DNA of 64,000 nt from Candidatus Latescibacterota bacterium (lineage in GTDB: Bacteria > Latescibacterota > UBA2968): assembly GCA_965116885.1 (NCBI GenBank), contig OZ220741.1, positions 64,001-128,000 of the forward strand, given 5' to 3'. Shown here piece after piece: positions 7,909-24,509 of this stretch. Position 1 is the first letter of the stretch. Every line of letters begins with the position of its first letter. The position numbers were made by a program, and so were the translations under genes. The notes under the pieces were generated by a model, which searched no databases, was not told the origin of the DNA, and saw only the letters and a program-made list of their open reading frames with translations.

Positions 7909-8304
7909 ATGTTGATCTCGATTGACCACCACAATGGCATACCCGTTTTTCGCCAGATCATCGACCAGGTGAAATTCCACGTAGTCAGCGGGCTACTCGC
8001 GCCGGGAGACGAATTGCCCTCGACCCGTGCATTATCGGGACAACTGGGACTCAACCCAATGACAGTAAGCAAAGCGTACAGCCTGTTGGAAGCAGAGGGA
8101 TTGGTCGAGCGGCGGCGCGGACGACCTTTAACCGTAAAACCCTTACGAGATCAGACCGTACACGCTGAAAAACTGGCACAACTCAAACCACAACTCACGC
8201 AATTGGCAACAATGGTTCGGCAGTTGGGGATTGATCGGGCGGAAGTCGTAGATCTTTTTCTCTCCATCTTAGATACCCTGGAGGAAGACAATGATGGCAC
8301 ATAA
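7909..8304 (+). CDS. GntR family regulator, YtrA subfamily
   Basis: IPVFRQIIDQVK...PGDELPSTRALS..LGLNPMTVSKAY..LE.EG; short C-terminal domain; followed by an ABC ATPase. Confidence 0.92.
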   Translation: MLISIDHHNGIPVFRQIIDQVKFHVVSGLLAPGDELPSTRALSGQLGLNPMTVSKAYSLLEAEGLVERRRGRPLTVKPLRDQTVHAEKLAQLKPQLTQLATMVRQLGIDRAEVVDLFLSILDTLEEDNDGT

Positions 8305-9184
8305 CCAGACATCTGTATTTGAAGCCACATCTTTAACTAAAAAATTCAGTGACACCACAGCGCTCAACTCCGTAACGCTCTCTCTCGGGGCGCATCGCGT
8401 AATTGGATTGATCGGACGCAATGGCGGAGGCAAAACCACCTTGATCCAGCACATGATCGGCCTGTATTTGCCCACAGAGGGAACGTGTCAAACACTGGGA
8501 CAAACGTGTGATCAGTTGGGGGCAAACGAACTCTCGCGCATAGGCGTAGTACACCAGGAAAATCGCTTTTTTGAATGGATGACCGTCAAACAGCATCTGC
8601 GCTATGTGTCCTCATTTTACGAAATATGGGACCGCGACCTGGAAGCGCATCTGCTGCGCGAACTCGAACTGGAAACCTCCGCGCGCGTGGGCAACCTGTC
8701 TTCGGGGAATATGCAAAAATTGGGAATCATTCTGGCAGTATGTCATCATCCCGAATTATTGATCTTAGATGAGCCGGTCAGTGGCCTGGACCCTATCGCG
8801 AGAGAGACATTGTTGAAATTTCTAATGACACTCCTATCTGAAGACGAAAACACAATCGTGATCTCCTCCCACATTCTGCGGGACATCGAAAAAATAGTAG
8901 ATTGGGTCGTATGCCTCGACGAAGGTGTGGTCAAAGCCGACAAATCACTGGACGATCTGCACCAGACCTACGCAAAATGGACAGTCACAGGAAACAATCT
9001 GCCCCAGCAATTTTCTGAACCTTATATCCTGTCGCAAACAGTGAACGGAGTACAGGCACAATTGATCGTCAACCAGACACTGGGCAACGCAGACCAATTC
9101 AAACAGACTTATCAGGCTGATGTCACCAGTCAGTCCCTGAACCTCGACCAGCTATTTCCCATCCTGATTCGGGAGGGCGCGTAA
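8291..9184 (+). CDS. ABC transporter ATP-binding protein (YtrB-like)
   Basis: GRNGGGKTT Walker A, LSSGN signature, LILDEP Walker B, SSH switch. Confidence 0.93.
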   Translation: MMAHNQTSVFEATSLTKKFSDTTALNSVTLSLGAHRVIGLIGRNGGGKTTLIQHMIGLYLPTEGTCQTLGQTCDQLGANELSRIGVVHQENRFFEWMTVKQHLRYVSSFYEIWDRDLEAHLLRELELETSARVGNLSSGNMQKLGIILAVCHHPELLILDEPVSGLDPIARETLLKFLMTLLSEDENTIVISSHILRDIEKIVDWVVCLDEGVVKADKSLDDLHQTYAKWTVTGNNLPQQFSEPYILSQTVNGVQAQLIVNQTLGNADQFKQTYQADVTSQSLNLDQLFPILIREGA

Positions 9185-10650
9185 TGGGTATTCTTCCATT
9201 TTTCACATTTTGGCGAAGCCCCGTTTACATTATCATCGCCTCTTGTGTAGGCTGGTTTCTCTTCCAAAACGCGCTGTCTTCCCACGCACATCAGTTCTCT
9301 GTATTCTTTTTATTTTTCTTTATTGAACTTTACGGTGGGATTATTGGCGATATTGTAGGAGAGAACCAGCATCGGATGCTCACATGGACCCTGCCACATT
9401 TTCGCAAGCGTCTTATGATCTGGTCAATAATTGTCGGACTATTTTCCGTTGTGGCGTGGACGATTGTGCTGACTTATGCACCCCTCAATGCGTCCTGGTC
9501 AACGATTTTGCTCCTGAATATGTGCCTCTATTGTTTGGGATTTACCCTTTTTGGGGGATGGAGTTTAGATACTAATCGCCCCGGGTTGATTTACAAGTGT
9601 CGAGTTCCCCTCTCATTGCTGGTGTTGGCATTAGCCTATTTGTGGCAAGAGGTGCTCGCTTTTGGAGAGCAACAAAAGTTGGGATTGGCTCTCATCGCAT
9701 TCGCTATCGCAATTGGAACTCATTATTTCGCCTTTAACCAGACAGCTTTTCGCAGTAGGCCATTTTCTTTTTTTGTTGGTTCATTCTACTCGGGTTTTGA
9801 TCCTCAAACCCGGGAGATTCAAAAGAATGCAATGAAGATGCGAAAGACGAGTACCAGGGTATGGCATATCGATCACATCGGTACAGGCATCTTCAACTGG
9901 CTGCGTGCCGGTCAGTACGAAAATTCTGGTCTGGGCGGGTGGAGATGGCCACTTTCCGCGTTTGGCGCAGCATTGGTAATGGTATTCATTTTTTTGAGCA
10001 TGGAGACGAATTTCTTAGGATTGTTGGGTCAATCTCCCTACGATTTTGAGACCGTCTCGAAAATGATTTATCACATGATCTTTTATTGTGACCAGTTAGA
10101 TCCCAAGATCGCCCTTAATATATCGTTTTCTGTGTGCTTCGGCATTTATATGTTTATTTTTTTCTCTGCTTTTTTCTTAAAAAGAGGGTATGTCTATCCG
10201 CTTTCCCGCACCCAGCGGATGCGAATTCAGTATTGCGATTTGCTGGTGCAAAATATTTCTTTTATTGCCGCATCTATTCTGGTGTTGGGCGTTCTGGGCA
10301 TCCTATCTGGAGCAAAGGTTGGGTTTGTGTCTGAAGGAAATATTTCTCTGGGAATACTTCGCGTTTTTGGATGGGTAGTGGTTCTGATACCGATATTTCA
10401 GTGGTTGCAAGTCAAATATGACCTGTATGAATTTCAAAGAATGCTGAGACATCGGTGGAGGTTCGCTCTTGTGTTACTGATCATGATTTTGAGTATTGGA
10501 ATCGCTGGTTTTACCAGTCTGATGCGTGTCTGGTATCCCGATTTGATGCTGATCTATGAAGTGCCAATCCTATTTGTCTGTTTTATTCTCTTGCAATGGT
10601 TCCTATTGGCTCGGCTCAAACGGTATTATGCGACACAGGATCTGGTATAG
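9184..10650 (+). CDS. Polytopic membrane protein, probable ABC permease (paralog 1)
   Basis: About 12 hydrophobic segments; YPLSR motif; TAATG overlap with the ATPase stop. Confidence 0.75.
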   Translation: MGILPFFTFWRSPVYIIIASCVGWFLFQNALSSHAHQFSVFFLFFFIELYGGIIGDIVGENQHRMLTWTLPHFRKRLMIWSIIVGLFSVVAWTIVLTYAPLNASWSTILLLNMCLYCLGFTLFGGWSLDTNRPGLIYKCRVPLSLLVLALAYLWQEVLAFGEQQKLGLALIAFAIAIGTHYFAFNQTAFRSRPFSFFVGSFYSGFDPQTREIQKNAMKMRKTSTRVWHIDHIGTGIFNWLRAGQYENSGLGGWRWPLSAFGAALVMVFIFLSMETNFLGLLGQSPYDFETVSKMIYHMIFYCDQLDPKIALNISFSVCFGIYMFIFFSAFFLKRGYVYPLSRTQRMRIQYCDLLVQNISFIAASILVLGVLGILSGAKVGFVSEGNISLGILRVFGWVVVLIPIFQWLQVKYDLYEFQRMLRHRWRFALVLLIMILSIGIAGFTSLMRVWYPDLMLIYEVPILFVCFILLQWFLLARLKRYYATQDLV

Positions 10651-10678
10651 ATTTAACCTTATCAACAAGGAAGAAGAG

Positions 10679-11518
10679 ATGACGTATCCAAATCTGAAGC
10701 AGTCTATTTGGCTGCTGGTATTATTGGTCCTGATTAGCGCAGGTTTGGGGATACCGGTTGCGATCCTGGGGATGATTATTGACCAGCCGTTACACAAAAG
10801 TCCTTATGCGATCTGGCCATTGACCCTGGTGAGTTTTGTTTTGGTCGTACACTATGTTTTGCGTCGGACCGATCGAACCTGGGCTTCGTGGTCTGATATC
10901 ATGCCCATAAAAGCCATTTCGTGGCAATTGCTACTGCCACTTGTGGTATCTATCCTTGGATTGCTTATCGTCTCTTTCGAATTGGGAAAAGTGATGATGT
11001 CTTTGGCCCCAACGCCCGAGGTGGTGAAGGATACACTCCGCGGGTTGGTCGGCAAAAAAACCTCTTATTGGTTGGCCTTTTACGGCGCAGTGATTCAAAC
11101 ACCTATCATAGAAGAGGCACTTTTTAGAGGCATTATTGTGGGTGGTTTGTTGGCGTATTGGTCAAAATATCAGGCCGCTATTTGGTCGGCAATTTTGTTT
11201 GGCATATATCACCTGAACCCAGCGCAATTTCCCGTGGCCTTCATATTGGGGCTTGTATTCGCATGGTGGATTATTCAAACGGGGTCTTTGTTGCCTTGTA
11301 TGCTGGGACACGCATTGAACAATTTTCTGGCTATTACCCTGGCACGATCGGGAATACCGGGCTTTAAAAACCCAAAGGCTCTGATCTTTCTGCCGTGGTG
11401 GGTGATCGTGTGTGCCGTACTATTGGCCGCGATTGGATTGTGGTGGTTTTATCAAGTAGCAAAGCGCGAAGAAACTAATCAGCTTGAAGCGGAAGTTGAA
11501 CCCGAAAGACATTGTTGA
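10679..11518 (+). CDS. CPBP (Abi/CAAX-II) family intramembrane metalloprotease
   Basis: EEALFRG, FGIYHLN, HALNN motifs; AAGGAAG RBS. Confidence 0.92.
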   Translation: MTYPNLKQSIWLLVLLVLISAGLGIPVAILGMIIDQPLHKSPYAIWPLTLVSFVLVVHYVLRRTDRTWASWSDIMPIKAISWQLLLPLVVSILGLLIVSFELGKVMMSLAPTPEVVKDTLRGLVGKKTSYWLAFYGAVIQTPIIEEALFRGIIVGGLLAYWSKYQAAIWSAILFGIYHLNPAQFPVAFILGLVFAWWIIQTGSLLPCMLGHALNNFLAITLARSGIPGFKNPKALIFLPWWVIVCAVLLAAIGLWWFYQVAKREETNQLEAEVEPERHC

Positions 11519-11628
11519 AATTTCTAATGACACTTTTGACTGAGGACGAAAACACAATCGTGATTTCGTCACATCATGCACTAAACCTCGACCAGCTATT
11601 TCCCATCCTGATTCGGGAGGACATGTAA
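11507..11628 (+). pseudogene. Internally deleted remnant of a paralogous ABC ATPase 3' end, still in frame
   Basis: 11507-11574 aligns to 8805-8872 and 11581-11628 to 9137-9184; reads TLLKFLMTLLTEDENTIVISSHHALNLDQLFPILIREDM*. Confidence 0.85.
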
Positions 11629-13112
11629 TGGGTATTCTTCCGTTCTTCACATTTTTGCGAAGCCCTGTTCACATTATCATCGCATTTTTTGCATGTCTGT
11701 TACTCGCTCATGTCTCATGGACTGCCGACAGAGACCAGTTCTTTGTGTTTCTCGTATTTCTGCTATTCTTCTTTAGTGGATTTTGGGGCTATGCTATCGG
11801 AGGTATTGTAGCAGAGAACCAGCATCGGACGCTCACCTGGACCCTGCCACATTTTCGCAAGCGTCTGATGATCTGGTCGGCAATAGTCGGACTGTTTTCC
11901 GTAGTGGCGTGGACGATTATGTTGACTTATGCACCCCTTAATGCGTCCTGGTCAACAATCTTGCTAATAAACTTGGGCTTTTATTGTTTCGGATTTGTCT
12001 GTACAGCGGGTTGGGATTTTGGTGTTTATCATTCTCTGTTGATCCAGGCATGTCAGATCATATTAATTTTTTTATTTCTTATATTGGCTTTTTTTTGGCA
12101 AGAGGTACTCGCTTTTGGAGAGCAACAAAAATTGGGGTTGGCTCTCATCGCATTCGCCATCACAATTGCGGCTTATTATTTTTCGTTTAAACAGACAACT
12201 TTTCGGAGAAAGCCTCTTTCCTTGTTATGGTCACTGCGCTCGGTTTTTTATCCTCATACTTGGGAGATGTGGAAAAGGGATGCGATGAAGAGGCGAAAGC
12301 CGAGTACCAGGGTATGGCATCTCGATCACATCGGTACAGGCATCTTCAATTGGCTGCGTGCGGGCCGGTATGAAAATAGTGGTGGCAAGCTATGGCTATG
12401 GATGCTTCCCGGTTTTAGCGCAGCATTGGCAATGGTATTCTTTTTTTTGGGCATGGAGACGAGTTTCTTCGGGTTATTGGGTCGATCTCCTTACGATTTT
12501 GAGACCATCTCAAAAATGATTTATCACATGATCTTTTATTTCGACCAGTTGGCCCCCAAGACCGCCATTAATATATCTCTTTCAGCGTTTTTCGGCGTTT
12601 GGGCATATACGACGTATATTTGGAGTCATCCTTTTTTCTTAAAAAGAGGGTATGTGTATCCGCTTTCTCGCACCCAGCGGATGTGGATTCGGTATTGTGG
12701 TTTTCTGGTGCAAAATATTTCTTTTTTTGCATCGTCTATTCTGGTACTGGGTGTTCTGGGCATCCTGGCAGGGGCAAAGATCGGGTTTATGCATGAAGGG
12801 GATATTTCCTTGAGAATACTTTGTGTCTTTGGGTGGACAGTGGTTCTTTGGCCGATGTTTCAGTGGTTGCAAGTCAAATATCACCTGTATGAATTTCCAA
12901 GAACGCGGCGACAGATGTGGGGGGTGGTTTTTCTGGTCTTGATCATGTTTTTGGCTTGTGGAATTGCTGGTTTTGTCGGTGTGATGCGTAATCTATATCC
13001 CGACTTGTCACTGACCTATGAAGCGCCGATCCTTTTTGTCTGTTTTATTCTTTTGCAATGGTTCCTATTAGCACGGCTCAAACGGTATTACGCCACACAG
13101 GATCTAATTTAG
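11628..13112 (+). CDS. Polytopic membrane protein, probable ABC permease (paralog 2)
   Basis: Long blocks identical or near-identical to 9184-10650, e.g. LTWTLPHFRKRLMIWS, HIGTGIFNWLRAG, FFLKRGYVYPLSRTQRM, LLQWFLLARLKRYYATQDL. Confidence 0.8.
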   Translation: MGILPFFTFLRSPVHIIIAFFACLLLAHVSWTADRDQFFVFLVFLLFFFSGFWGYAIGGIVAENQHRTLTWTLPHFRKRLMIWSAIVGLFSVVAWTIMLTYAPLNASWSTILLINLGFYCFGFVCTAGWDFGVYHSLLIQACQIILIFLFLILAFFWQEVLAFGEQQKLGLALIAFAITIAAYYFSFKQTTFRRKPLSLLWSLRSVFYPHTWEMWKRDAMKRRKPSTRVWHLDHIGTGIFNWLRAGRYENSGGKLWLWMLPGFSAALAMVFFFLGMETSFFGLLGRSPYDFETISKMIYHMIFYFDQLAPKTAINISLSAFFGVWAYTTYIWSHPFFLKRGYVYPLSRTQRMWIRYCGFLVQNISFFASSILVLGVLGILAGAKIGFMHEGDISLRILCVFGWTVVLWPMFQWLQVKYHLYEFPRTRRQMWGVVFLVLIMFLACGIAGFVGVMRNLYPDLSLTYEAPILFVCFILLQWFLLARLKRYYATQDLI

Positions 13113-18160: not shown

Positions 18161-18283
18161 TGCATCCAGATGTATGCAGTAGTGCATCCAACTGTATGCA
18201 CTTGTTTATCTTTATATAATTCAGATAGTTATGTTTGTTTTCTTGTAAATAGAGATTATAGGTGCATCCTGTCGGATGCACCT
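18161..18283. promoter_or_regulatory. Three palindromic upstream activator (enhancer) sites
   Basis: TGCATCCAGATGTATGCA (18161-18178), TGCATCCAACTGTATGCA (18183-18200), AGGTGCATCC-TGTC-GGATGCACCT (18260-18283). Confidence 0.75.
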
Positions 18284-18342
18284 GCGCCAGAATCTCGCAG
18301 GTGTAGCACAAATAATTCTTAAATTTTATCTCTTTGTTTTTC

Positions 18343-18368
18343 AAGCACTTGAAAATTTTCAAGTGCTT
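18343..18368. promoter_or_regulatory. Perfect 26-bp palindrome overlapping an IHF-like site between enhancer and promoter
   Basis: AAGCACTTGAAAATTTTCAAGTGCTT; the overlapping TTTCAAGCACTTG resembles WATCAANNNNTTR. Confidence 0.5.
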
Positions 18369-18389
18369 TTTTTGTGCTGAGACGACCTT

Positions 18390-18404
18390 TGGCACGGATC
18401 TTGC
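18390..18404 (+). promoter_or_regulatory. Sigma-54 (-24/-12) promoter
   Basis: TGGCACGGATCTTGC matches TGGCACG-N4-TTGC exactly, 55 bp upstream of the peptide ATG. Confidence 0.9.
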
Positions 18405-18459
18405 GCTATAAAAAGGGCAAACCGTTATGGCGCAAGATTTTTCCTTAAAGGAGGATAAC

Positions 18460-18639
18460 ATGGCAACACGACGCAAGTTGACTTTGGTCAATGGAACAAT
18501 AGATCAAGAAGGTAGCATTCTTATGTATCAGACTGTAAAGAGTGTTGAGGTTCACTGCTCCCCTTATTCTTTTTCCGTTCCCCTCGTGCCTTTCCCTGAT
18601 GATGACGACGATTGGGACGATTTTGATCAAGCTGAATAA
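18460..18639 (+). CDS. Putative RiPP precursor peptide (59 aa)
   Basis: AAGGAGG RBS; MATRRKLTLVNGTIDQEGSILMYQTVKSVEVHCSPYSFSVPLVPFPDDDDDWDDFDQAE; lies directly upstream of an RRE-containing radical SAM gene. Confidence 0.75.
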   Translation: MATRRKLTLVNGTIDQEGSILMYQTVKSVEVHCSPYSFSVPLVPFPDDDDDWDDFDQAE

Positions 18640-18665: not shown

Positions 18666-20096
18666 ATGCTATGCATTCAGAAATGCGACATGCATCTTTT
18701 TGAAACCGAGGAGCAAAAACAGCCGATTGTCTATCAGGTTGAGACCGGTCTGTTTTTTGAACTGGACACCCTTTTCCAGTCAATTTTAGAGTGTTGTGAG
18801 GGCTTGTCTGCTTCACAGGTTGTTCAAGTATTGGTTGATCAATACGAGGCAGAAGAAATTGCTCAGGCTATCGGGGAATTGGCGCAGGTGGGTTTGATTG
18901 CTGATGGCGCACTACCTGTAGTAGCCAATGTACCGACAACAGAAGGGGTAGCTGCCTGTGGCGTGTCGCAGACAGATCGTTTGCAGGTGTCGTTGCACAT
19001 TTCGCATACATGTAATATTCAATGTGCTTATTGCTTTGCTCACGGTGGAGATTATGGCGGTAAGGCCATGCTGATGCAACCAGATGTTGCCGAGCAAGCC
19101 ATACGCTGGATCGTCACTGAAGCTCAGGGGTTTGGGCGGTGCCAGATTGATTTTTTTGGCGGGGAGCCGCTTCTGAATTTTCCGCTGTTGCAGAAGCTCG
19201 TTCCATTTGCCAAATCCCTGGGCGCGCGATTGGATGTACAGGTTGGTTTTGGTATTGTGACCAATGGCACGCTGTTGACCGACGAGATGAAGCAATTTTT
19301 GGTCGATGAAAAGTTTCAAATTAAGGTTAGCCTGGATGGTGGGCGCAAGACACAGGATCGCATTCGCAAGTTTCACAATGGTTCCGGGACTTATGATGTT
19401 GTGGCAAAGAATGTAAAGAAATTGGCTGCTGAGGCACCTGAGCGCGTGTATTTGCAGGCTGTTATGACAGCTTATGATATGGATGAAGATCAGATTGCCA
19501 ATGCGTTGCGCTCGCTGGGTACTGATAACGCGCTTGTTGATCCGGCTGTTGTTTCACCGGATGCGCCCTATGCGATTCGGGAAGAACACATACCCGTTTT
19601 GAAGCAGCAAATTCACAAGCGGAGTAGGCGTGCGCTCAAAGCCATTCTAAATGGTGAAGAGAATGAGGAGTTTGATCCGCGGATTCAGAAACTGTTGACG
19701 CGACAAAAATCCTGTCATGGATGCCTGGGTGGTAAGCAGTATCTGGCTGTTGCAGCGGATGGGGCGATTTATTTTTGTTCGAGCTTGGCCGATGCGCCTG
19801 AGTTTAAGATGGGTGATGTGTTTGCGGGTATTGATCGCGAAAAACAGCAGCATTTTGACGCGCAGTTCAATGTCAACAATCGGCCTGAGTGCAAGACCTG
19901 CTGGGCGCGCAACCTGTGTGGTGGTGGGTGTCTTTGGGAGGCGCGGACGACGACGGGTGATCCGATGTATCCCAACCCTGTTGCTTGTGAGCAGACGCGC
20001 TATCGCTATGAACTGGCGATGGAGATGTGTATGGAAATTTCAGAGGCAGATGGTTCTTTGTTGCAACGACGTTATGATCTGGAAGTGGCATCATAA
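18666..20096 (+). CDS. RRE (PqqD-like) - radical SAM - SPASM peptide maturase, ranthipeptide (CteB/QhpD-like) type
   Basis: N-terminal three-strand plus winged-helix RRE pattern; CNIQCAYC; FFGGEPLLN; TNGTLL; SLDG; SPASM CHGC...YFC...CKTCWARNLCGGGC...C; GAGGAG RBS. Confidence 0.92.
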   Translation: MLCIQKCDMHLFETEEQKQPIVYQVETGLFFELDTLFQSILECCEGLSASQVVQVLVDQYEAEEIAQAIGELAQVGLIADGALPVVANVPTTEGVAACGVSQTDRLQVSLHISHTCNIQCAYCFAHGGDYGGKAMLMQPDVAEQAIRWIVTEAQGFGRCQIDFFGGEPLLNFPLLQKLVPFAKSLGARLDVQVGFGIVTNGTLLTDEMKQFLVDEKFQIKVSLDGGRKTQDRIRKFHNGSGTYDVVAKNVKKLAAEAPERVYLQAVMTAYDMDEDQIANALRSLGTDNALVDPAVVSPDAPYAIREEHIPVLKQQIHKRSRRALKAILNGEENEEFDPRIQKLLTRQKSCHGCLGGKQYLAVAADGAIYFCSSLADAPEFKMGDVFAGIDREKQQHFDAQFNVNNRPECKTCWARNLCGGGCLWEARTTTGDPMYPNPVACEQTRYRYELAMEMCMEISEADGSLLQRRYDLEVAS

Positions 20097-20128: not shown

Positions 20129-20183
20129 AAAACGACATCCAAATGGGGAGCACTCTATTAGATGCCGTTTATTTTGCTTTTTT
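20129..20183 (+). terminator. Putative terminator after the radical SAM gene
   Basis: Imperfect long hairpin AAACGACATC...GATGCCGTTT followed by a T-rich tract. Confidence 0.45.
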
Positions 20184-20206
20184 GGGTGGGCGACAGATTG
20201 TCGGTG

Positions 20207-21199
20207 ATGGGAAAAATATACCAATCAAAAAAATCCGGTCTCTATAAATGGCCGCTCATTGGACAGCATTCCTCACTCTTAGACGTGCAAAAGCGCGCGT
20301 ACCGCGTGGCGAATAGCGAATTGCCCGTCAACATCAATGGTGAGACTGGCACGGGTAAGGAATTGCTCGCCCGTTATGTTCATGGGATTAGCCACCGCAA
20401 CAAGGGACCATTTGTAACCGTTGACTGCGGCATACTCTCTTCTGAAATGTCGCGCAGCGAGTTATTTGGACATGTTCGAGGTGCTTTTACCGGTGCCAGT
20501 GAAACGCGCACCGGACTGGTTGAATCTGCCCACGGCGGTACGCTATTCCTCGATGAAGTGGGCGAATTGCCAGCCAATCTTCAGTTGCAATTGCTACGCC
20601 TGGTACAGGAGCAGGAATTTCGCCGCGTAGGCGAAGCATCCATGCGCCGATCTGACGTGCGCCTGGTCACTGCGACACACTGCAACTTGCGAAAAATGGT
20701 GCGAAAAGGAACTTTCCGAGAAGATCTCTATTACCGCTTAAATGTCGTACCCCTGCATTTGCCACCCCTGCGGAAGCGACTGAGCGACTTACCTCTTCTG
20801 GTCACACATTTTTACAAGAACATGAACGGATACACCCGCGCGTTTTCCCCCGAAGTCATTCAAAGGATGTCGCGTTATGCATGGCCCGGCAATGTTCGGG
20901 AACTACAACACGAAGTCGCCCGATTGATGGTCATGGCCGAAGGTAAAATTATCCGCGTATCCGATCTGCACCCTCGCATTCGAGGGGCAAAGGCCGAGGT
21001 CGATGTATTTGACCTCCCCTTTAAGGAAGCCAGACAGCTGGCGAACAGCCGGTTTATGCGAGAGTATCTTCACAGAGCTTTGCAGCGAACACAGGGCAAT
21101 GTAACCCAGGCAGCGCGAGAATGCGGGATTGGCCGACAATATTTCCAATTGCGTATGTCTGAACACGGTCTAAAGTCGGCATCTTACAAACAAAAATAA
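20207..21199 (+). CDS. Sigma-54 enhancer-binding protein with no N-terminal sensor domain (PspF/HrpR-like architecture)
   Basis: AAA+ core starts about 15 aa in; GETGTGKE, ELFGHVRGAFTGA, FREDLYYRL, WPGNVREL, HTH GNVTQAARECGIGR. Confidence 0.9.
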   Translation: MGKIYQSKKSGLYKWPLIGQHSSLLDVQKRAYRVANSELPVNINGETGTGKELLARYVHGISHRNKGPFVTVDCGILSSEMSRSELFGHVRGAFTGASETRTGLVESAHGGTLFLDEVGELPANLQLQLLRLVQEQEFRRVGEASMRRSDVRLVTATHCNLRKMVRKGTFREDLYYRLNVVPLHLPPLRKRLSDLPLLVTHFYKNMNGYTRAFSPEVIQRMSRYAWPGNVRELQHEVARLMVMAEGKIIRVSDLHPRIRGAKAEVDVFDLPFKEARQLANSRFMREYLHRALQRTQGNVTQAARECGIGRQYFQLRMSEHGLKSASYKQK

Positions 21200-21216: not shown

Positions 21217-21251
21217 AAAAAACGTCAATGGAAAAACCCATTGACGTTTTT
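21217..21251. terminator. Bidirectional intrinsic terminator
   Basis: AAAAAACGTCAATGG / CCATTGACGTTTTT inverted repeat. Confidence 0.75.
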
Positions 21252-21278
21252 CCTTGCAGGGTGTTTCTTGAGCGTATC

Positions 21279-24200
21279 ATGCAATACATCGCCGACATAC
21301 ACCTGCACTCGCGTTTTGCCCGCGCAACCAGCAAGACCCTGAACCCCGAAAACCTGTATCGGTGGAGCCTCATCAAAGGTCTGACCGTGGTAGGCACCGG
21401 AGATTTCACCCATCCGGTATGGTTTGAAGAACTGCGCGATCAACTCGAACCCGCCGAAGAAGGGTTATATCAACTGCGCCCAGACCTCAGGCGAGGTATC
21501 GACGCCGAGTTACCACAAGCCTGCCGCGGACAAATGCGATTTGTGCTCTCGGTCGAAATCAGCCTCATCTACAAAAAAAACGACAAAACGAGAAAAATAC
21601 ATCACGTCGTCACAATGCCGAGTTTTGACGCTGTGGCGCGCTTGAATGCCCGACTCGGCGCAATAGGCAATCTGAAATCCGACGGACGCCCCATCCTCGG
21701 CCTGGACAGCCGGGACCTGGTAGAAATTTGTCTGGAAGCGTGTGACGAGGTACTCTTTATACCCGCCCACATCTGGACCCCTCACTTCGCGGTCCTCGGC
21801 GCGAGTTCTGGATTCGACACCCTCGAAGAATGTTTTGAAGACATGCTCCCCCACATCTTCGCCGTAGAAACCGGCCTGTCTTCCGATCCGCCGATGAACT
21901 GGCGCCTATCCATGCTGGACAACTACGCAATCGTCTCCAATTCCGATGCACATTCCCCGCAAAAACTCGCCCGCGAAGCCACCTGCTTTAACACCGAATT
22001 ATCCTTTCGAGGAATGTATGACGCATTAAAAGACCGCGATCCAACGCGCTTCACCGGCACCCTGGAATTTTATCCCGAAGAAGGCAAATATCACTTTGAC
22101 GGACATCGAAAATGCGATATATGCTGGAAACCCGTACAAACCCTCGAAGCAGACGGGATCTGTCCGGTATGTAATCGCAAATTGACCGTTGGCGTACTCC
22201 ACCGCGTTGAAAAACTCGCAGACCGCGCAGAAGGCGACCGCCCCAACGTGGCGATGCCCTTTGAAAATCTGATCCCACTGCCAGAAATCATCGGTTCAGT
22301 CCTCCAGGTGGGACCGACCAGCAAACGCGTACAATCCGTGTACGAACAAATGCTCGCAACACATGGGGCAGAGCTGAAAATCTTGCGCGAACTGCCCATC
22401 GAAGAAATCGCAAAAACAGGAGACCCCCTCATCGCCGAAGGCATTCGACGCATGCGCGAAGGCACAGTTCACATAGACCCGGGATACGACGGCGTGTACG
22501 GCAAAATTCAAGTCTTCTCCGACGAAGACCGCGCACGCCTGAGCGGACAGGAATCGCTGTTTCACATACCAGTCTCAGAGCCTTCGAAAGAGAAAGAAGA
22601 GAAAGCAAGCCTGGACAAGAGCACAGAAACCGAGATCGTCAGAGATTCTCCCTTCACACTTCCCACTTCTCACTTCACACTTCTCGATCCCCACCAGCAA
22701 GCAGCCGTAACAACAGAAAAAGGTCCCGTCATCGTAACAGCGGGACCTGGCACCGGAAAAACCAGGGTACTCACCCATCGCGTAATCGACCTGATCCAGA
22801 ACCGCGGCGTATCGCCCGCTTCTGTAATGGCCGTAACATTCACCAACCGCGCCGCAACTGAAATGTGGGAACGCATCGTATCACTATCCTCGGGAGGAGA
22901 AGAACTGGTACCCATGCGCGTGGGCACATTCCACCGCCTATCACTGGACCTCCTGCGAGAATACGCCCCCGAGCGACTGGGCGCAATAGCCGACCGCGGA
23001 GAAGCCCGTGCCCTCTTGCAAGAAGTAATCGCCGACATCGACACCGAAATACCGATTGATGACGCCCTCTCTCAGATCTCCCTGTACAAAGCCTGTGCTG
23101 AAGATCAAGACATCATTTCCCCCGAACTCCAAACCATTTATACAAATTATCAACACCGCCTCACCACGTATGGACTGATGGACTTTGACGACATCTTGCT
23201 CATACTCCACGATGTACTCTGCGGCGATATATTGCGGACAGTGCAAGCGCGTTTTTCCCATGTACTCGTCGATGAATTTCAAGACGTCAACGCCGTACAA
23301 TACGCACTAATTCAAAAACTGGCTGGGGATGGTTCCGGTCTATTCGTCATCGGCGATCCCGATCAAGCTATCTACGGTTTTCGAGGCGCGAGCGCAGAAT
23401 ATTTTGCACAGTTAAAATCGGACTTTCCCGAAACAAACGAAGTCATATTGCAGCACACATTTCGCTCCACACCTCAGATTATCTCCGCAGCATCCAGCCT
23501 GCTTGGCGAGCGATCGTACGATCCCGTACGAGAAAATGGTCCTAATCTAAGAATACTATCCACACCCGGCGAAACAGGCGAAGGCATCGCCATCGTAGAA
23601 GAAATCTCCCGGATGGTCGGCGGCGCAGACTTATTGCAAGCCAACGAAGAAGGCAAACGCAGCCTGGACGACTTTGCCGTATTGTTCCGCACCGGACGCC
23701 AGGCAGACGCCCTGGAAGCGTGCTTCTTACAGGCCGGGATCCCCTATCGCGTCGTCGGACAGAAAAATTATCTGGACGCGGCCTCGGTACAGCATGCACT
23801 ATCGTTTTTTAAGTGCCTCCTGAAGGACAACATTTCCAGCACCCCAACCACCAGAGATATAACCGACCTCCTCTCCATCCCCGCATTTGACCCTGGCCGA
23901 GAAGCCCGCGCATCAATACGCCAGCAAATACAAAACAACACACTATCAGACACTGTACAGGAAAAATTGGACACCGCGATAGAAGCTGTAGATCGCTTCC
24001 GCAATGAAACATCCCACCTATCGCCTTCCGAACGCATAGCAAAGTGGGCAGAAGAATTTGCGACATCAGACGACATCGACATCGAACGACTGGGCCTATT
24101 AGCTCAAGGCGTGGATTCCATCGCAGAGCTATTGGAAATCATCACCCTCGGACAAGATGGCGACTTTGTACGTCGTGGAAAAATTGCGCGGCCCGAAGCC

Positions 24201-24509
24201 GTCACGCTCATGACCTTGCATGCGTCCAAGGGCCTGGAGTTTCCCGTAGTATTTATCAGCGGAGTTGAGGAAGGATTGATACCGCATGCCGAAGCGAATA
24301 TCGAAGAAGAGAAACGCCTATTTTTCGTCGGCATAACCCGCGGACAAGACGAAGTAATCTTAACCCGCGCCCGAAGCCGCAGACGCTTTGGCGAACGCAT
24401 CGCACCCAAAATATCGCGCTTTGTGACCGACATCCCCGAAGAAGTGATCGAATTTGTCGATCTGCGAACCGAAAGACGCAAGCCCGCCGAACAATTATCC
24501 CTATTTTAA
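21279..24509 (+). CDS. EndoQ/YqxK-type PHP nuclease fused to a UvrD/PcrA SF1 helicase
   Basis: ADIHLHSRF, GTGDFTHP, PAHIWTP, NSDAHS, GKYHFDGHRKC..C, CPVC; then AGPGTGKT, TFTNRAA, VDEFQD, GDPDQAIYGFRGA, TLHASKGLEF, EEKRLFFVGITR. Confidence 0.92.
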   Translation: MQYIADIHLHSRFARATSKTLNPENLYRWSLIKGLTVVGTGDFTHPVWFEELRDQLEPAEEGLYQLRPDLRRGIDAELPQACRGQMRFVLSVEISLIYKKNDKTRKIHHVVTMPSFDAVARLNARLGAIGNLKSDGRPILGLDSRDLVEICLEACDEVLFIPAHIWTPHFAVLGASSGFDTLEECFEDMLPHIFAVETGLSSDPPMNWRLSMLDNYAIVSNSDAHSPQKLAREATCFNTELSFRGMYDALKDRDPTRFTGTLEFYPEEGKYHFDGHRKCDICWKPVQTLEADGICPVCNRKLTVGVLHRVEKLADRAEGDRPNVAMPFENLIPLPEIIGSVLQVGPTSKRVQSVYEQMLATHGAELKILRELPIEEIAKTGDPLIAEGIRRMREGTVHIDPGYDGVYGKIQVFSDEDRARLSGQESLFHIPVSEPSKEKEEKASLDKSTETEIVRDSPFTLPTSHFTLLDPHQQAAVTTEKGPVIVTAGPGTGKTRVLTHRVIDLIQNRGVSPASVMAVTFTNRAATEMWERIVSLSSGGEELVPMRVGTFHRLSLDLLREYAPERLGAIADRGEARALLQEVIADIDTEIPIDDALSQISLYKACAEDQDIISPELQTIYTNYQHRLTTYGLMDFDDILLILHDVLCGDILRTVQARFSHVLVDEFQDVNAVQYALIQKLAGDGSGLFVIGDPDQAIYGFRGASAEYFAQLKSDFPETNEVILQHTFRSTPQIISAASSLLGERSYDPVRENGPNLRILSTPGETGEGIAIVEEISRMVGGADLLQANEEGKRSLDDFAVLFRTGRQADALEACFLQAGIPYRVVGQKNYLDAASVQHALSFFKCLLKDNISSTPTTRDITDLLSIPAFDPGREARASIRQQIQNNTLSDTVQEKLDTAIEAVDRFRNETSHLSPSERIAKWAEEFATSDDIDIERLGLLAQGVDSIAELLEIITLGQDGDFVRRGKIARPEAVTLMTLHASKGLEFPVVFISGVEEGLIPHAEANIEEEKRLFFVGITRGQDEVILTRARSRRRFGERIAPKISRFVTDIPEEVIEFVDLRTERRKPAEQLSLF
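22646..22687 (+). repeat. Degenerate heptamer tandem repeat in the interdomain linker
   Basis: ttctccc ttcacac ttcccac ttctcac ttcacac ttctcga. Confidence 0.65.

Follow-up and report, generated by a model that had tools for sequence, protein, structure and literature searches.

A predicted single-Cys ranthipeptide-type precursor family with a hypervariable loop and a putative dedicated sigma-54 circuit in Candidatus Latescibacterota

We examined a short ORF in a window of Ca. Latescibacterota DNA (the window being the whole stretch that was analyzed, 64,000 nt in length) and found that it belongs to a family of short peptides that combine one invariant Cys with a hypervariable six-residue loop and that are encoded between a giant putative sigma-54 activator and a radical-SAM/SPASM maturase. 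We consider it moderately probable that the whole is explained by a ranthipeptide-type (radical non-alpha thioether) precursor, which is switched on through sigma-54 and receives one thioether macrocycle at Cys33. According to this proposal, the kinase-STAND-TPR-GAF-sigma-54 activator would bind three palindromes upstream of the peptide (18161–18280), and the bound activator would turn on the -24/-12 promoter at 18390–18404, giving a transcript of peptide and maturase. Leader residues ~5–14 (RKLTLVNGTI) would then pair as a beta-strand with the N-terminal RRE of the maturase, and the three-cluster radical-SAM/SPASM enzyme would remove a hydrogen atom from the carbon that acts as acceptor and bond this carbon to the sulfur of Cys33, so that the product would be one macrocycle displaying the hypervariable loop. 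We infer each of these steps, and we propose the cross-link, its acceptor, and the Cys as donor on the strength of family resemblance. The features concerned are collected in the table.

Table. Features of the cassette and of the genes upstream of it (positions in the window; residue numbers refer to the protein named)
Feature	Position	Strand	Description
ABC ATPase	8291–9184	+	Upstream module, possible export/processing
Unclassified polytopic membrane proteins (two, ~490 aa)	9184–10650, 11628–13112	+	
CPBP/Rce1-like intramembrane protease	10556–11518	+	
Regulator, 1664 aa	13154–18148	+	Ser/Thr kinase, AAA_16 (STAND) NTPase, MalT-like TPR, GAF, sigma-54 AAA+, Fis-type HTH (Pfam, NCBIfam)
Three 18-bp palindromes, TGCATCC-N4-GKATGCA	18161–18178, 18183–18200, 18263–18280	.	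Candidate upstream activator sites
Hairpin, 11-bp stem and T run	18343–18375	+	Between regulator gene and promoter; stem conserved, loop varies among loci
Sigma-54 type -24/-12 promoter (predicted)	18390–18404	+	TGGCACGGATCTTGC; only match in the window
Shine-Dalgarno sequence, AAGGAGG	18448–18454	+	5 nt 5' of the ATG
Precursor peptide, 59 aa	18460–18639	+	ATG at 18460, TAA at 18637–18639
Precursor parts			Leader 1–32 (recognition strand ~5–14), invariant Cys33, hypervariable loop 34–39, Pro-rich V40–P46, acidic tail D47–E59
Maturase, 476 aa, RRE/radical-SAM/SPASM	18666–20096	+	CX3CX2C at C116/C120/C123; seven conserved SPASM-region Cys
Sensor-less sigma-54 activator, 345 aa	20162–21199	+	AAA+ and HTH only; possible accessory part of the cassette type

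The precursor ORF (18460–18639, plus strand) translates to MATRRKLTLVNGTIDQEGSILMYQTVKSVEVHCSPYSFSVPLVPFPDDDDDWDDFDQAE. The frame, the translation, and the AAGGAGG ribosome-binding site, which an earlier note had read from the DNA, are all borne out by the sequence at 18448–18639. An alternative in-frame ATG at 18427, which lacks a ribosome-binding site, would extend the peptide to 70 aa, the version found in some databases (P0002); the form kept across the aligned loci is the 59-aa start together with its ribosome-binding site. A protein database search (5.8 billion proteins) returned 99 matches, 97 of them at E ≤ 3.7e-11 and the two weaker ones resembling frameshifted copies. When species-representative genomes were scanned, 27 peptide loci were found, all in metagenome-assembled genomes (MAGs) of Ca. 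Latescibacterota, one record of which bears the label Poribacteria. In the genome from which the window was taken (a single 5.56-Mb contig), peptide and maturase genes each occur three times, every peptide being paired with a maturase. Furthermore, four RNA-library runs labelled as sponge metagenome, from two studies, contained contigs 90–99% similar to the maturase gene, which was covered in all four runs, and one 306-nt contig (18453–18757, five mismatches) spans the entire peptide ORF and extends into the maturase; this evidence is at the level of contigs, which may derive from DNA carry-over and can neither prove transcription nor give transcript ends. The same contigs left 18322–18408 nearly uncovered and 20149–20400 uncovered, and such holes in contig data are not interpretable. 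The contig-level nature of the RNA evidence would be compatible with the ORF being open by chance or lying untranslated within the leader RNA of the maturase, but this is contradicted by the 97 homologues, by the conservation of frame, start, and ribosome-binding site, by dN/dS values of 0.12–0.25 outside the loop, and by the fact that even the hypervariable cassette keeps its reading frame. Because the conservation is at the codon level, we regard this rival as effectively refuted and give it almost no credence. Judged from these comparisons, the 59-aa ORF is real, conserved, and under selection, and conservation of the ORF was one of the points on which the earlier note had let its proposal stand or fall.

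For the analysis of individual residues, 86 of the 99 database matches were aligned; the 13 omitted sequences were ten with N-terminal extensions, including the Cys-less P0026, and three that were frameshift-like. Nine positions were invariant in this alignment (M1, L7, L9, N11, G12, C33, P41, F45, and P46), and V40, P44, D49–D51, D53, and F55 were conserved in at least 90% of the sequences. In other words, among the Cys, Pro, Tyr, Phe, Trp, and Asp residues for which invariance had been in question, C33, P41, F45, and P46 are invariant, but those of the tail (D49–D51, D53, and F55) reach only the 90% level. Of the aromatic residues, proposed earlier as sites of cross-linking, those in the C-x6 loop are not conserved; the conserved ones are F45 and F55 only. 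The spacing C-x6-[VI]P was present in 123 of 129 sequences and C-x5 in two; the other four (P0026, P0079, P0098, and P0099) are frameshift-like or Cys-less, with an unrecognizable loop. Exactly one Cys was found in 84 of the 99 database matches (two in 12, three in one, and none in two), and C33 occurred in 86 of the 86 aligned sequences. The single Cys that had been noticed in the one peptide is thus a property of the family, and since only one Cys is invariant, the accompanying argument that at most one thioether can form also holds.

The codons of the precursor are under very different degrees of constraint. Nei-Gojobori estimates over 30 loci gave a dN/dS of 0.25 for leader codons 1–20, 0.40 for the remaining leader codons, 1.03 for the six loop codons (from Cys33 to V40, both excluded), 0.12 for the VPxLPFP segment, and 0.22 for the acidic tail. 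The limits of the hypervariability coincide exactly with C33 and V40–P41, and 81 distinct loop sequences were counted; by contrast, the maturases are 89–94% identical in all 30 loci. Because of this dN/dS pattern, and because loops of such constant length and high diversity accompany such similar maturases, the peptide is, on the evidence of its codons, a fixed scaffold (leader, Cys, Pro-rich arm, and acidic tail) with a freely diversifying six-residue cassette. No conserved acidic residue lies within six positions of Cys33, the nearest conserved Asp being at Cys+14.

The order regulator (~1,650 aa), peptide, and maturase was found in 30 of 30 loci (the 27 from the scan and the three of the window's own genome), with the regulator truncated by a contig end in three, and this synteny supports the role of the peptide as a precursor for the adjacent radical-SAM/SPASM maturase. 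Pfam recognized Radical_SAM, Fer4_12, and SPASM domains in the maturase and, below threshold, a PqqD/RRE match at residues 22–69; the Cys residues expected to ligate its clusters are invariant or nearly so among 70 homologues. The best NCBIfam score was obtained with the SCIFF maturase model TIGR03974 (266.4 bits against a cut-off of 425, E = 4.4e-79), and other high scores were obtained with the nif11-type maturase (255 bits, cut-off 519, E = 1.3e-75), QhpD (247 bits, cut-off 453, E = 3.5e-73), the "not_ScfB" orphan (237 bits, cut-off 855), and PapB (229.6 bits, cut-off 340, E = 5.5e-68). That is, the top family scores, including the five best, belong to thioether formers (E = 1e-79 to 1e-49), every one of them below its curated cut-off, whereas the cyclophane/ether formers YhhB, FxsB, and DynA reached only 1e-22 to 1e-27. 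By these profile scores, the maturase probably falls in the thioether-forming neighborhood, outside every curated family. Its best solved relative is CteB (5WGG/5WHY, E = 2.1e-61), with an alignment over maturase residues 20–452 that takes in the RRE, CX3CX2C, and the cysteines of the SPASM region. Among the representatives of a library clustered at 50% identity, the three closest to the maturase were 59%, 42%, and 40% identical to it, followed by a plateau at ≤34%, and the closest database relatives outside the family share ~30–34% identity.

The RKLTLVNG stretch, which the earlier note had taken to be the RRE recognition sequence, proved to be the best-conserved stretch of the leader, and modelling of the complex supports that assignment. 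In the model, leader residues 5–14 are placed as a strand on maturase residues 28–34, in the N-terminal RRE-like domain, with an ipSAE of 0.77 in three of three runs (best of three controls, 0.00); the mark applied to this score is reached by 116 of 157 solved pairs and by two of 215 mismatched pairs. The partner pLDDT was 47–50, and the runs shared at least 59% of their contacts. Because the structure of CteB with CteA residues 1–21 has already been solved, the pass may stem from likeness to, or memory of, that complex (5WGG), in which, as an excerpt of PMC8326336 describes, the CteA leader is bound by the CteB RRE as a strand. Confident peptide contacts were limited to residues 5–14, 18, and 20–27. 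As neither the core nor the tail was placed with confidence, the model is silent on the acceptor.

The acceptor was considered in the light of published precedents. Excerpts of PMC8326336 give Asp, Glu, Thr, and Asn as known acceptors (Asp, Asn, and Thr in RiPPs, and Asp or Glu for QhpD) and mention ranthipeptides with a single thioether, and part of PMC9413430 reports that PapB forms links between Cys and either Asp or Glu, Cys-Xn-Asp being tolerated for n = 0–6. The Asp run is the only conserved residue type with acceptor precedent within the genus of the window, but its nearest conserved Asp lies at least 13 residues from Cys33, beyond the range of PapB. We tentatively favor an Asp of D47–D53 as the acceptor, in which case a large ring would be braced by the Pro-rich arm. 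A residue at the conserved C-terminal border of the loop, V40/P41, is a rather unlikely candidate; ring closure there fits the pattern of selection but is without acceptor precedent in this clade. The remaining probability falls to some other acceptor. Should the acceptor turn out to be an Asp far from the Cys, or else a backbone-proximal carbon where the loop ends, the ring sizes or the acceptor range of this enzyme clade would be wider than those now recognized.

The wider family bears on the Asp run. With P0100, the 59%-identical maturase representative, as the reference, maturase relatives at E ≤ 1e-60 occur in 15 of 20 other genomes of the window's genus and in 27 of 168 genomes of the phylum. 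The maturases of sister genera are 42–53% identical to that of the window, and a sigma-54 activator again lies upstream. Their precursors have an N-terminal strand of the L-x-(I/V)-N-G type, one conserved Cys, and a Pro/aromatic segment, and Cys33 is the sole core residue conserved across all sister subfamilies; the poly-Asp tail is lacking. This tail, for which the earlier note had suggested a role as a follower or a metal/partner-binding segment, is strongly conserved within the genus but absent from the sister-genus precursors. Because of that absence, the Asp run is not a family-wide acceptor or follower; as a genus-level feature of the sequences compared here, it is weakened as a universal acceptor. 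A Thr after the poly-Pro of the sister-genus precursors was considered as a counterpart of the Asp run, but it is present in most of only a handful of sequences and missing from P0267, and we rejected it as weak. A metagenome scan with P0100 yielded 14 loci, all of them distant radical-SAM genes (22–34% identity), and so added nothing on the precursors of that subfamily. At four sister-genus loci (L041, L057, L058, and L059), a second radical-SAM/SPASM gene, 23–27% identical, follows the first maturase, and at L055 the precursor is divided over two frames.

These observations also bear on whether the Cys is a donor at all. The maturase might instead form a C-C or C-O cross-link at an invariant Phe or Pro, or epimerize a residue, with Cys33 only anchoring the peptide on the auxiliary cluster; such contact of a non-cross-linked substrate Cys with the auxiliary cluster is described for CteB in an excerpt of PMC8326336. 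The core is rich in invariant or conserved Pro and Phe (P41, P44, F45, P46, and F55), the sister subfamilies retain the Cys and the aromatic/Pro segment without the acidic run, and the maturase scores under all curated cut-offs. Nevertheless, we consider a chemistry that spares the Cys improbable, in view of the lead that the thioether formers have over YhhB, FxsB, and DynA among the family scores, and of the donor-like character of one invariant Cys held at a fixed distance from a conserved segment.

The DNA upstream of the peptide has the features of a sigma-54-dependent operon with an enhancer-binding protein: a candidate promoter, rpoN in the genome (427.9 bits, above the cut-off), and an AAA+ protein with GAFTGA and an HTH. 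Pfam found the Sigma54_activat and HTH_8 domains of the regulator, and GAFTGA was read in the translations of both activators, i.e., the regulator and the 345-aa protein. Shuffled windows gave a mean of 0.26 matches to the -24/-12 pattern. The promoter has the form [TA]GGCA[CT]N5TTGC in 25 of the 30 loci and GGGCAC-N5-TTGC in the other five, so that all 30 are accounted for. Three sites of the 18-bp palindrome (four strand matches) occur in the 64-kb window, against none in 100 shuffles, and loci of the same regulator clade have this palindrome as well, at identical offsets for all three sites; in other clades, palindromes of the TGTAAAC-N4-GTTTACA or TGTATC type are found instead. Because the palindromes are clade-specific, each cassette type seems to have a private operator, to which its regulator would bind. 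On these motifs, dependence on sigma-54 and binding of the regulator to the DNA are probable, and the giant sensor protein appears to switch the precursor on. The hairpin between the regulator gene and the promoter is probably the terminator of the former; alternatively, it may be a protein-binding site. Downstream of the maturase, a 37–42%-identical match to the AAA+/HTH part of the regulator occurs in 11 of the 30 loci, adjacent in eight and 1.2–4.5 kb away in three (L008, L017, and L020). Some regulators have internal deletions (L012 and L028) or split frames, while the peptide and maturase are intact (L012, L028, L008, L019, L023, and L026); these regulators may be assembly errors or decaying genes.

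In all nine sister pairs examined, the substitution pace of the TPR region of the regulator (residues ~868–947) is 1.5–2.5 times that of the remaining protein. Matrix correlations between loop divergence and TPR divergence looked positive, with r = 0.44 (21 loci) and r = 0.60 (one clade) and a partial Mantel p of ~0.0005, and among nine independent sister pairs, the loop diverges in step with the TPR region (rho 0.79) and with the other parts of the regulator (rho 0.62) alike. It does not track the TPR/rest ratio (rho only 0.05 in the nine sister pairs), so that no specific signal of co-variation between loop and TPR region is seen. Three variants, each apparently under its own regulation, coexist in the window's own genome, and it is conceivable, if doubtful, that the three cassettes are insulated, pherotype-like circuits of peptide signalling, in which each activator would sense its own cyclized peptide, directly or after export, through the fast-evolving TPR/STAND region and drive its own operon through the private operator, the ring being a strain-specific signal among sponge symbionts. 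The layout of leader, conserved Cys, variable ring, and acidic tail recalls the staphylococcal AgrD autoinducer precursor, with ring closure here by a radical-SAM enzyme, as predicted, instead.

The maturase paralogues (window 18666–20096; L004 7737–9182, minus strand; L005 9089–10540, plus strand; and 27 further loci) do not track the regulator clades. Mean maturase identity was 0.922 within one genome (17 pairs), 0.907 across genomes within the same regulator clade (116 pairs), and 0.907 between different clades (272 pairs), and the nearest maturase came from the same genome for nine of 25 loci and from the same clade for only two of 25. The regulators behave normally, with an identity of 0.848 within a clade and 0.82 otherwise. 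Because the regulators track the clades and the maturases do not, maturase and leader may have undergone concerted evolution or gene conversion.

Several further genes accompany the cassettes. In 13 of the 30 (L005 10544–11452, plus strand, and 12 further loci), the gene after the maturase encodes a protein of 302 aa whose GxGxG-type motif resembles that of class I methyltransferases. The window's cassette lacks this gene; its product had no Pfam match at 1e-5, and its single NCBIfam match was a weak one to a methyltransferase (E = 0.02). A 1,093-aa fusion of a TIGR00375-family N-terminal domain with a UvrD/PcrA-type helicase (window 21228–24509) is conserved in 10 loci, where it lies downstream of this cassette type. 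A 419-aa protein near the second cassette (L004 3374–4633, minus strand) gave a weak match to the contractile-injection-system model CIS12 (E = 7.7e-8, far below the cut-off), and a MacB-like permease adjoins it. Upstream of the regulator, the ABC, membrane-protein, and protease genes at 8291–13112 may form a module for export, processing, or immunity, whose link to the cassette we infer. The CPBP protease lies 5.6–7.2 kb upstream of a maturase in six genomes of the genus, including that of the window (G000). In the ESM Atlas, the 494-aa membrane protein matched unnamed clusters only, with a weak look-alike (0.86) to an ABC-exporter domain, and we set this lead aside.

No protease or exporter common to all 30 cassettes was found. 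This would suit a modified peptide that remains intracellular, where it would partner a protein or act as a cofactor-like subunit, like QhpC or as debated for SCIFF, with the acidic-aromatic tail serving to bind a protein or a metal; the best matches of the maturase include QhpD, and selection on the tail is purifying (dN/dS 0.22). However, a loop with a dN/dS of ~1 and 81 versions fits a diversifying interaction surface better than a housekeeping partner, and the ABC ATPase, membrane proteins, and CPBP protease stand beside this cassette type in the six genomes, so that we regard a purely intracellular role as unlikely. Under the preferred reading, a sigma-54-switched precursor with one Cys33 thioether macrocycle, the family would extend ranthipeptide-type biosynthesis to a minimal one-Cys scaffold, and the six-residue loop, naturally hypervariable between fixed anchors, would be a ready-made natural library of 81 versions. 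For a RiPP, the regulatory design would be unusually explicit: up to three times in one genome, a giant kinase/STAND/TPR/GAF enhancer-binding protein dedicated to the cassette would be combined with a private operator and a promoter of sigma-54 type. The hosts are uncultivated, sponge-associated Latescibacterota, which are, to our knowledge, a candidate phylum without cultured members. For sponge Latescibacterota, generic "ranthipeptide" clusters at the antiSMASH level are mentioned in part of PMC12993501; our literature search on ranthipeptides and Latescibacter* found only mentions at that level, and our search for work linking ranthipeptides with sigma-54 found none.

Among known systems, SCIFF (ScfA/ScfB; CteA/CteB of Clostridium thermocellum) is similar in that a short precursor directly precedes an RRE/radical-SAM/SPASM maturase, an adjacency present in 30 of 30 loci here. 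CteB is moreover the best solved relative of the maturase, TIGR03974 gives the best family score, the leader pairs with the RRE as a strand in the complex model, and the core cassette is likewise without a dedicated protease or exporter. Unlike SCIFF, which has six Cys and is hosted by Clostridia, the present family has one Cys and is hosted by Latescibacterota, with a hypervariable loop, a Pro-rich segment, and an acidic tail in the precursor and, in the cassettes, a predicted sigma-54 system with a giant kinase activator and three paralogous copies per genome. The SCIFF precursor model TIGR03973 (six_Cys_in_45) remained unmatched throughout the genome at E ≤ 10, and the peptide itself matched no NCBIfam family at E ≤ 0.01 and no Pfam model. 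When a profile of the peptide alignment was run against PDB chains, the top match was SgdX2 (E = 0.011, over a 38-residue stretch), which was judged to be chance, and the ESM Atlas offered no usable match for the peptide. Membership in SCIFF was rejected, given the unmatched TIGR03973, one conserved Cys rather than six, and a maturase under the TIGR03974 cut-off; the "SCIFF-like" leader of the earlier note holds loosely, in that the recognition strand is supported, but no SCIFF model is matched and the maturase scores 266 against 425 bits.

The Cys-Asp/Glu thioether formers PapA/PapB (freyrasin) and QhpC/QhpD resemble the present pair in that PapB and QhpD are among the top matches of the maturase and that a conserved Asp run is available. 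The family differs from PapA/PapB in lacking repeated C-X3-D motifs, in having its nearest conserved Asp at Cys+14, and in a score of 230 against 340 bits, and from QhpC/QhpD in a score of 247 against 453 bits and in showing no amine-dehydrogenase context among the ORFs examined around the cassette. NxxcA/NxxcB of streptococci, according to an excerpt of PMC8326336, likewise combine one Cys with one thioether per peptide, the thioether here being predicted; the precursors are unrelated, the host and the regulation differ, and the NxxcB model is absent among the best 25 of the 71 NCBIfam matches of the maturase. On the side of the regulator, the closest parallel noted is with the TOMM system kinase/cyclase fusions TIGR03903, which are also giant Ser/Thr-kinase-STAND-TPR proteins (2.8e-86, 290 bits); the score is below the cut-off of 706, and the output here is GAF, sigma-54 AAA+, and HTH instead of a cyclase. 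TIGR03903 proteins are encoded beside RiPP precursors. Taken together, these comparisons point to a family of single-Cys, hypervariable-loop precursors of ranthipeptide type under a dedicated sigma-54 circuit, which resembles the SCIFF and other ranthipeptide pairs yet fails the SCIFF tests and probably represents an undescribed branch of a known class.
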